Assembly: GCF_009931435.1 (NCBI RefSeq)
Contig: NZ_CP043414.1
DNA: 64,000 bases
Origin: Escherichia coli
Lineage (GTDB): Bacteria; Pseudomonadota; Gammaproteobacteria; Enterobacterales; Enterobacteriaceae
Reading direction: 5' to 3' (one strand)
Of the stretch, positions 22-852 are shown one piece after another. The notes under the pieces were generated by a model. The model did not search any database. It saw only the letters and a list, made by a program, of their open reading frames with translations, and was not told the origin of the DNA. How positions within the stretch are numbered: position 1 is the stretch's first letter; every line of letters begins with the position of its first letter. The position numbers and the translations under genes are program-made.

Positions 22-852
22 TTACGCGGAGCGAGACGCTGTCGCCCCTGCGCGCGGCGGCAGAGTAAATGCCACCAGCGCCGGGATGAGATAAATAAAC
101 CAGACGGCGACTTCGCTGACGCTCGGCGCTTCCTGATAACCAAAGATACCTTCCATCAGCGTACCGAACAGCGAGTGAGTTGAGAGCACCGCGCTCATAT
201 CGAAGGCGATTTCCTGAAAGTGGTTCCACAGCCCGGCTTCATGAAACGCGCGAATAGCACCAGCAGCCAGCCCTGCGGCGACGAAGAGAATAAACAGGCT
301 GGTCCATTTAAAAAACGCGCCAAGATTGAGGCGAATACCGCCCCAGTAGAGCAGGAAGCCGAGCACCACGGCTGTAGCAAGACCGAGCATTGCACCCAGC
401 GGAGGCCAGATCCCGACATCTTGTTGAAACGCCGCCAGCAGGAAAAAGACCGACTCCAGTCCTTCCCTTGCAACGGCAAAAAAGACCATCATCACCAGCG
501 CCCAGCCATGATGATTCCCACGCTGCAATGCGCTATCGACTGCCTGTTCCAGTTGCACTTTGACGTTGCGCGACACTTTACGCATCCAGAAAACCATCCA
601 GGTGAGGATCACCACGGCAATCACCGCCACGATACCTTCGAACAATTCCTGCTCTTTTTGCGGAAATTCGCCGGTGGTTTCATTAATGAAGATACCCAGC
701 CCCAGGCACAACGCAGCGGCTAGCAACACGCCAATCCACATGACACCAATCCATCGACCTCGCTGGGTACGCTTAAGATAGCTGGCAATCAGGCTGACAA
801 TCAGCGCGGCTTCAAGTCCTTCGCGCAACATAATGAGAAACGGAACAAACAT
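22..852 (-). CDS. efeU: Ferrous iron permease EfeU (Ftr1 family), uninterrupted 276-aa frame
   Basis: ORF 22..861 translation; two REGLE (RExxE) motifs and multiple hydrophobic TM segments; start taken at MFVPFLIML (ATG revcomp at 850-852). Confidence 0.85.
   Translation of the reverse strand: MFVPFLIMLREGLEAALIVSLIASYLKRTQRGRWIGVMWIGVLLAAALCLGLGIFINETTGEFPQKEQELFEGIVAVIAVVILTWMVFWMRKVSRNVKVQLEQAVDSALQRGNHHGWALVMMVFFAVAREGLESVFFLLAAFQQDVGIWPPLGAMLGLATAVVLGFLLYWGGIRLNLGAFFKWTSLFILFVAAGLAAGAIRAFHEAGLWNHFQEIAFDMSAVLSTHSLFGTLMEGIFGYQEAPSVSEVAVWFIYLIPALVAFTLPPRAGATASRSA

Follow-up and report, generated by a model that had tools for sequence, protein, structure and literature searches.

An Uninterrupted efeU Gene in a 64-kb Stretch of Escherichia coli DNA Retains the Doublet Shortened in K-12

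Introduction

Is an uninterrupted efeU an unusual allele of Escherichia coli, or is it the ordinary form of a gene that is broken in K-12, and could the encoded permease be functional? The question is raised by one end of a stretch of E. coli DNA of 64,000 nt, which is referred to below as the window. An earlier note, made from the letters of the window alone, had described the gene as a complete Ftr1-like permease gene and had stated that its K-12 counterpart is frameshifted.

An intact efeU is already known and has been well described (Grosse 2006; Cao 2007). According to the passages of PMC2808357 and PMC7549933 that cite these two studies, a frameshift in efeU inactivates EfeUOB in K-12 and the operon is intact in other strains; low-pH Fe2+ uptake by EfeUOB, published for O157:H7 and Nissle 1917, is cited in the same passages. 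Fur control of efeU has been reported (PMC4145685), a Fur box upstream of efeU has also been predicted in ExPEC O78 (PMC4145685), and control by both Fur and CpxR is documented (PMC4145685, PMC9600279).

Materials and Methods

The K-12 allele was counted with a query of 61 nt centred on the K-12 deletion, which was matched exactly against 5380 complete E. coli genomes. The length of the efeU region was compared in a sample of 40 evenly spaced records among those matching the efeU region of the window. Fur-box-like sites were searched with the 19-bp consensus and full scoring on both strands of the 64-kb window (128 kb of strand). A protein was assigned to a family when its score exceeded the curated cut-off and the profile was covered from end to end. 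Hydrophobic segments were located by a Kyte-Doolittle scan, a crude method, using a window of 19 residues and a mean of at least 1.6.

Results

Reading frame and family of EfeU

The features of the window are summarized in Table 1. On the minus strand, the efeU frame opens with the ATG at 852, closes with the TAA at 24..22, and encodes 276 amino acids without interruption, just as the earlier note had stated. The frame in the mechanical ORF list is three codons longer and starts from the GTG at 861. The RefSeq annotation of the closest complete genome (MFDS1022581), in which efeU is 831 nt long, and the alignments of the family profiles, which begin at residues 1–5 of the product, support the ATG at 852 as the start rather than the GTG. 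Antisense to efeU, an ORF of 167 amino acids is found at 220..723 of the plus strand; it is a shadow ORF of the GC-rich membrane-protein gene and shows no sign of being a real gene.

Table 1. Positions of efeU, its motifs and upstream elements, and the phage genes at the far end of the window.
Feature	Position	Strand	Description
efeU CDS	22..852	minus	276 codons and TAA stop; Ftr1-like inner-membrane iron permease; first gene of efeUOB
Codon 263 (Thr)	64..66	minus	Sole amino acid difference (A263T) from Sakai EfeU and frame-repaired K-12 EfeU, both Ala
Second REGLE (RExxE)	454..468	minus	Residues 129–133, fourth membrane segment
GG doublet (CC on the plus strand)	746..747	minus	ORF nt 106–107, codon 36 (Gly); both bases in the window, one lost in K-12
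First REGLE (RExxE)	811..825	minus	Residues 10–14, first hydrophobic segment
CpxR-box-like motif GCAAAGAAAAGTAAA	890..904	plus	9/10 to GTAAA-N5-GTAAA; between the Fur box and the ATG; weak
Fur-box-like motif CGTAATGATAATCGCTATC	912..930	minus	15/19 to consensus (4 mismatches); 60–78 nt upstream of the ATG
Sigma-70-like promoter candidate	951..980	minus	Consensus scanner: TTTACA, 18-nt spacer, TACATT; contains the half-site ATCATTATC
Hairpin	999..1027	minus	13-bp stem and T-rich tail; just downstream of the putP stop
Tail fibre assembly	49977–50507
Tail fibre	50511–53096
J-like central fibre	53155–56634
Tail assembly	56695–57336
Tape measure	59007–61568
Major tail protein	62415–63185

The product scored 331.5 bits against NCBIfam NF041756, the EfeU equivalog "iron uptake transporter permease EfeU" (cut-off, 255; profile positions 1–256 of 257), 350.8 bits against TIGR00145 (curated cut-off, 303.8), and 299.1 bits against Pfam FTR1, PF03239 (cut-off, 25.3; profile positions 1–283 of 284). 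The E-values ranged from 1e-89 to 1e-105 with end-to-end coverage. These results indicate that the gene encodes a member of the EfeU/Ftr1 iron permease family, and both RExxE motifs that had been read from the sequence are present, each in the form REGLE (Table 1).

The hydropathy scan gave six hydrophobic segments with peaks at residues 5–23, 38–56, 70–88, 152–170, 185–203, and 248–266. The fourth segment of the protein (residues ~117–140), which is charged and bears a REGLE motif, fell under the threshold; both REGLE motifs sit within hydrophobic stretches. Counted together with the REGLE-bearing fourth, the six segments are consistent with the family topology of seven segments. A search by sequence for a solved structure of any EfeU/Ftr1 relative found none.

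The frameshift in K-12

In K-12 MG1655, efeU (b4490) is annotated as a pseudogene, and PGAP flags the gene of a K-12 derivative as "frameshifted", with a length of 830 nt against 831. Alignment of the window with K-12 efeU placed a 1-bp deletion in the GG doublet at the first base of codon 36, where K-12 reads GGATTGTGTGA, the window reads GGATTGGTGTCA, and O157:H7 Sakai reads GGATTGGTGTGA. The K-12 frame proceeds from M1 to I35-V36 and meets TGA at codon 37, giving a product of 36 residues that stops just past the first membrane segment. When the G was put back, the protein encoded by K-12 efeU was identical to Sakai EfeU. The annotation and the length difference agree with the passages in PMC2808357 and PMC7549933, and the statement of the earlier note that K-12 efeU is frameshifted and EfeUOB inactivated holds.

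Comparison with O157:H7 EfeU and purifying selection

EfeU of the window was identical to Sakai EfeU (ECs_1263) at 275 of 276 positions with no gaps. The frame is thus full length, not truncated, relative to Sakai EfeU, and the proposal in the earlier note that the strain carries a potentially functional efeU stands. At the DNA level, 39 of 831 positions differed from Sakai, and the differing codons comprised 38 synonymous and 1 non-synonymous. Against representatives of four other Escherichia species, 44–47 synonymous and 2 non-synonymous codon differences were counted. This large excess of synonymous over non-synonymous differences (38:1 and 44–47:2) indicates that efeU is under strong purifying selection.

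Distribution of the intact and K-12 alleles

The exact K-12 efeU allele was found in 368 of the 5380 complete E. coli genomes (6.8%) and is absent from about 93% of them. Among the matches listed, 60 of 60 were laboratory K-12 derivatives (e.g. MG1655, DH5alpha, C600, J53, and DH1). The efeU region showed no net length change in 37 of the 40 sampled records and a 1-nt deficit in the other 3, which were the laboratory strains "tolC-", XL10-Gold, and TUM22766, all apparently derived from K-12. An intact EfeU of 276 amino acids is encoded in all four of the GTDB representatives E. whittamii, Escherichia sp. E1V33, and strains E69 and SCPM-O-B-8794.

Because the K-12 allele was limited to laboratory K-12 derivatives among the matches listed and the four other Escherichia are intact, these sequences indicate that an intact efeU is the ancestral and usual state in E. 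coli and the genus Escherichia. The K-12 frameshift is a lineage-specific loss, and almost every other E. coli carries an uninterrupted efeU. In the E. coli collection, outside the window, seven efeU-homologous places were found on records typed as plasmids; these could be F-prime-like elements or mis-assigned replicons.

Upstream regulatory region

Fur-box-like motifs had been placed at 910–970 in the earlier note. The site CGTAATGATAATCGCTATC at 912–930 was the best match to the Fur consensus in the window on either strand; the next best elsewhere scored 13–14/19, and no match with 3 or fewer mismatches was found in the 64-kb window. This site overlaps the hexamer GATAAT at 919–924. Of 11 aligned Escherichia sequences, which include representatives of four other species, 10 have it unchanged and that of E. 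whittamii has one substitution. The motif at ~955–970 was rejected as a full Fur box: it scored below 13/19, comprises the half-site ATCATTATC, and is not conserved, being replaced by ATCATTTTAT in K-12 and Sakai. Of the two motifs in the 910–970 interval, the proximal one thus stood and the distal one did not.

Judging from the sequence, TTGTGT (941–946), a 16-nt spacer, and GATAAT would make a candidate Fur-occluded promoter. The 78 nt upstream of the ATG (853–930, including the Fur box) contained only two substitutions among 11 sequences from several Escherichia species, both in E. whittamii, and about 6% of positions in the efeU coding region differ in the same 11 sequences. The near-invariance of this leader or operator, set against the variation of the coding region, suggests that it is under functional constraint. 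For CpxR, the window contains six motifs of 9/10 quality, ~2.4-fold the 2.5 that chance would give, so GCAAAGAAAAGTAAA at 890–904 is a weak lead rather than evidence.

The putP-efeU spacer

The putP-efeU spacer (853–1071) is 219 bp long in the window and 542 bp long in K-12, where a REP-like palindrome is present. Going upstream from efeU, homology to most E. coli is lost at about 980, immediately past the conserved TTTACA, and the spacer beyond ~980 is non-homologous to that of K-12 or Sakai. Two forms of the spacer were distinguished: the window type (219 bp, CATCATTATCACTACATT), found also in other Escherichia species, and the K-12/O157 type (542 bp, CATCATTTTATAAACATT). The two forms also differ between the −35 and −10 hexamers, and the window type has an extra perfect Fur half-site overlapping a candidate −10. 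Since the short spacer and the window-type promoter sequence are common to E. whittamii, Escherichia sp. E1V33, and E69, they look ancestral. The window spacer form is also common to B2 strains. The strong hairpin at 999–1027 looks like a putP terminator, which would insulate efeU from putP read-through.

There is a slender chance that the two forms of the spacer and of the −35/−10 region give lineage-specific Fur, CpxR, or acid control of efeUOB. The effect of these variants on regulation is unlikely to be of much importance.

efeO and efeB

The statement that efeO and efeB lie outside the window agrees with our measurements, since the window extends 21 nt past the efeU stop and efeO starts 57 nt after this stop in relatives. 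The window therefore shows nothing of either gene, and EfeUOB would be non-functional here in spite of an intact efeU if efeO or efeB were damaged or missing. We regard this as very improbable. In 6 of 6 examined contigs with an identical EfeU, full-length efeO (375 amino acids) and efeB (423 amino acids) lie directly downstream, and the same arrangement is found in the closest complete genome, MFDS1022581. In the contigs of these relatives, EfeO has the domains Cupredoxin_1 and Peptidase_M75, and EfeB is a DyP peroxidase. The strong purifying selection on efeU would moreover be unexpected for an orphan subunit. The arrangement in relatives argues that both genes are probably present and intact in this genome.

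Possible impairment of EfeU

A lineage-specific change that impairs EfeU or its expression is even less probable. Two changes could be named in favour of such an effect, namely A263T, the single substitution relative to the O157:H7 protein on which experiments have been done, and the spacer, which is 219 bp rather than 542 bp long and non-homologous to K-12 and Sakai upstream of ~980. However, residue 263 is located close to the C-terminal end of the last hydrophobic segment and is distant from both REGLE motifs. In the public collection, 83 indexed blocks contain the identical T263 EfeU (23 contigs were read), and this protein occurs in many genomes of diverse backgrounds with 95–99% DNA identity to the window. 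In regards to expression, the short spacer and window-type promoter are those shared with the three other Escherichia named above and look ancestral, and the −35 hexamer, Fur box, and leader are conserved.

A chance open frame or mis-called gene can be dismissed in view of the profile E-values and end-to-end coverage, the conserved syntenic position beside putP and putA, and the 38:1 ratio of synonymous to non-synonymous differences.

Genomic context of the window

Between efeU (1.082 Mb in K-12) and serT (1.032 Mb), the window and K-12 are collinear, with identities of 95.3% over 1068–31336 and 96.9% over 31328–49527. The best complete E. coli genomes were 99.3–99.6% identical at efeU and 98.2–98.4% over neighbouring regions. 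None of the complete E. coli genomes exceeded about 98.4% over 24 kb, and 17 of them reached at least 99% at efeU. An exact-pattern scan of the GTDB species representatives returned only four outside E. coli sensu stricto, with identities of 92.5–93.7%. The window is therefore closer to E. coli proper, where identities were 95–99.6%, and these identities suggest a somewhat divergent or mosaic E. coli lineage as the source.

IS1D, which lies between gfcA and cspH in K-12 (1049778–1050545), is absent at 31328–31336 of the window, where the two alignment pieces share 9 nt, which is the length of an IS1 target duplication. Upstream of the gfc (group 4 capsule) operon, the sequence is consequently uninterrupted. 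The IS1D insertion is, after the efeU frameshift, the second K-12-specific lesion missing from the window.

The gene for tRNA-Ser(UGA), serT, is located at 49398–49485. From ~49528 to the end of the window (64000), the DNA has no counterpart at this position in K-12 and encodes a lambdoid tail module (Table 1); it is a prophage adjoining serT.

Discussion

We conclude with high confidence that the gene at 22–852 on the minus strand is an ordinary wild-type efeU of an E. coli-like genome, which has kept the ancestral sequence and encodes the iron permease of EfeUOB; no finding speaks against this reading. EfeU is a polytopic inner-membrane permease in which the two REGLE motifs, in segments 1 and 4, presumably pass iron across the membrane, by homology with yeast Ftr1p and with the protein of Nissle and O157:H7. 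Its partners would be EfeO, a periplasmic cupredoxin/M75 protein, and EfeB, a haem peroxidase of the DyP type, both predicted to be encoded immediately downstream, outside the window. The gene is most likely repressed by Fe2+-Fur bound at the 912–930 box, which overlaps the −10-like hexamer GATAAT, and CpxR and low pH may modulate its expression, in line with published work on E. coli. In K-12, the frameshift is a loss of one G from codon 36 specific to that lineage, with the window keeping the ancestral sequence.

Beyond showing that the strain is not K-12, an intact efeU has little to tell. Judging from the gene, the strain probably has a working EfeUOB system for ferrous-iron uptake, as nearly all natural E. 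coli do. K-12 is the exception at efeU, and likewise at the gfc locus, where the IS1 insertion is absent in the window.

The permease of the low-pH Fe2+ uptake system EfeUOB is said to have been characterized as EfeU (YcdN) of Nissle 1917 and O157:H7 in the work of Grosse et al. in 2006 and Cao et al. in 2007, and in that of Cao et al. the system was reportedly functional in the O157:H7 background. EfeU of the window resembles these proteins in its 276 amino acids, its two REGLE motifs, its position beside putP, and the same Fur box and leader. It differs from that of O157:H7 Sakai by A263T and 39 nucleotide changes, with 38 of the codon changes silent, and the distal part of its putP-efeU spacer is shorter and non-homologous. 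The K-12 pseudogene (b4490) occupies the orthologous locus and has 95.7% nucleotide identity to the window after repair of the frame, but has one G fewer at ORF nt 106–107, so that translation is over after 36 residues; both Gs are present in the window. In regards to yeast Ftr1p, the window protein is a full-length match to the shared profile (Pfam FTR1, PF03239) with the paired RExxE motifs. The partner of Ftr1p is the multicopper oxidase Fet3p, whereas the partners of bacterial EfeU are, according to published annotation, the periplasmic EfeO (cupredoxin and M75) and the DyP peroxidase EfeB.
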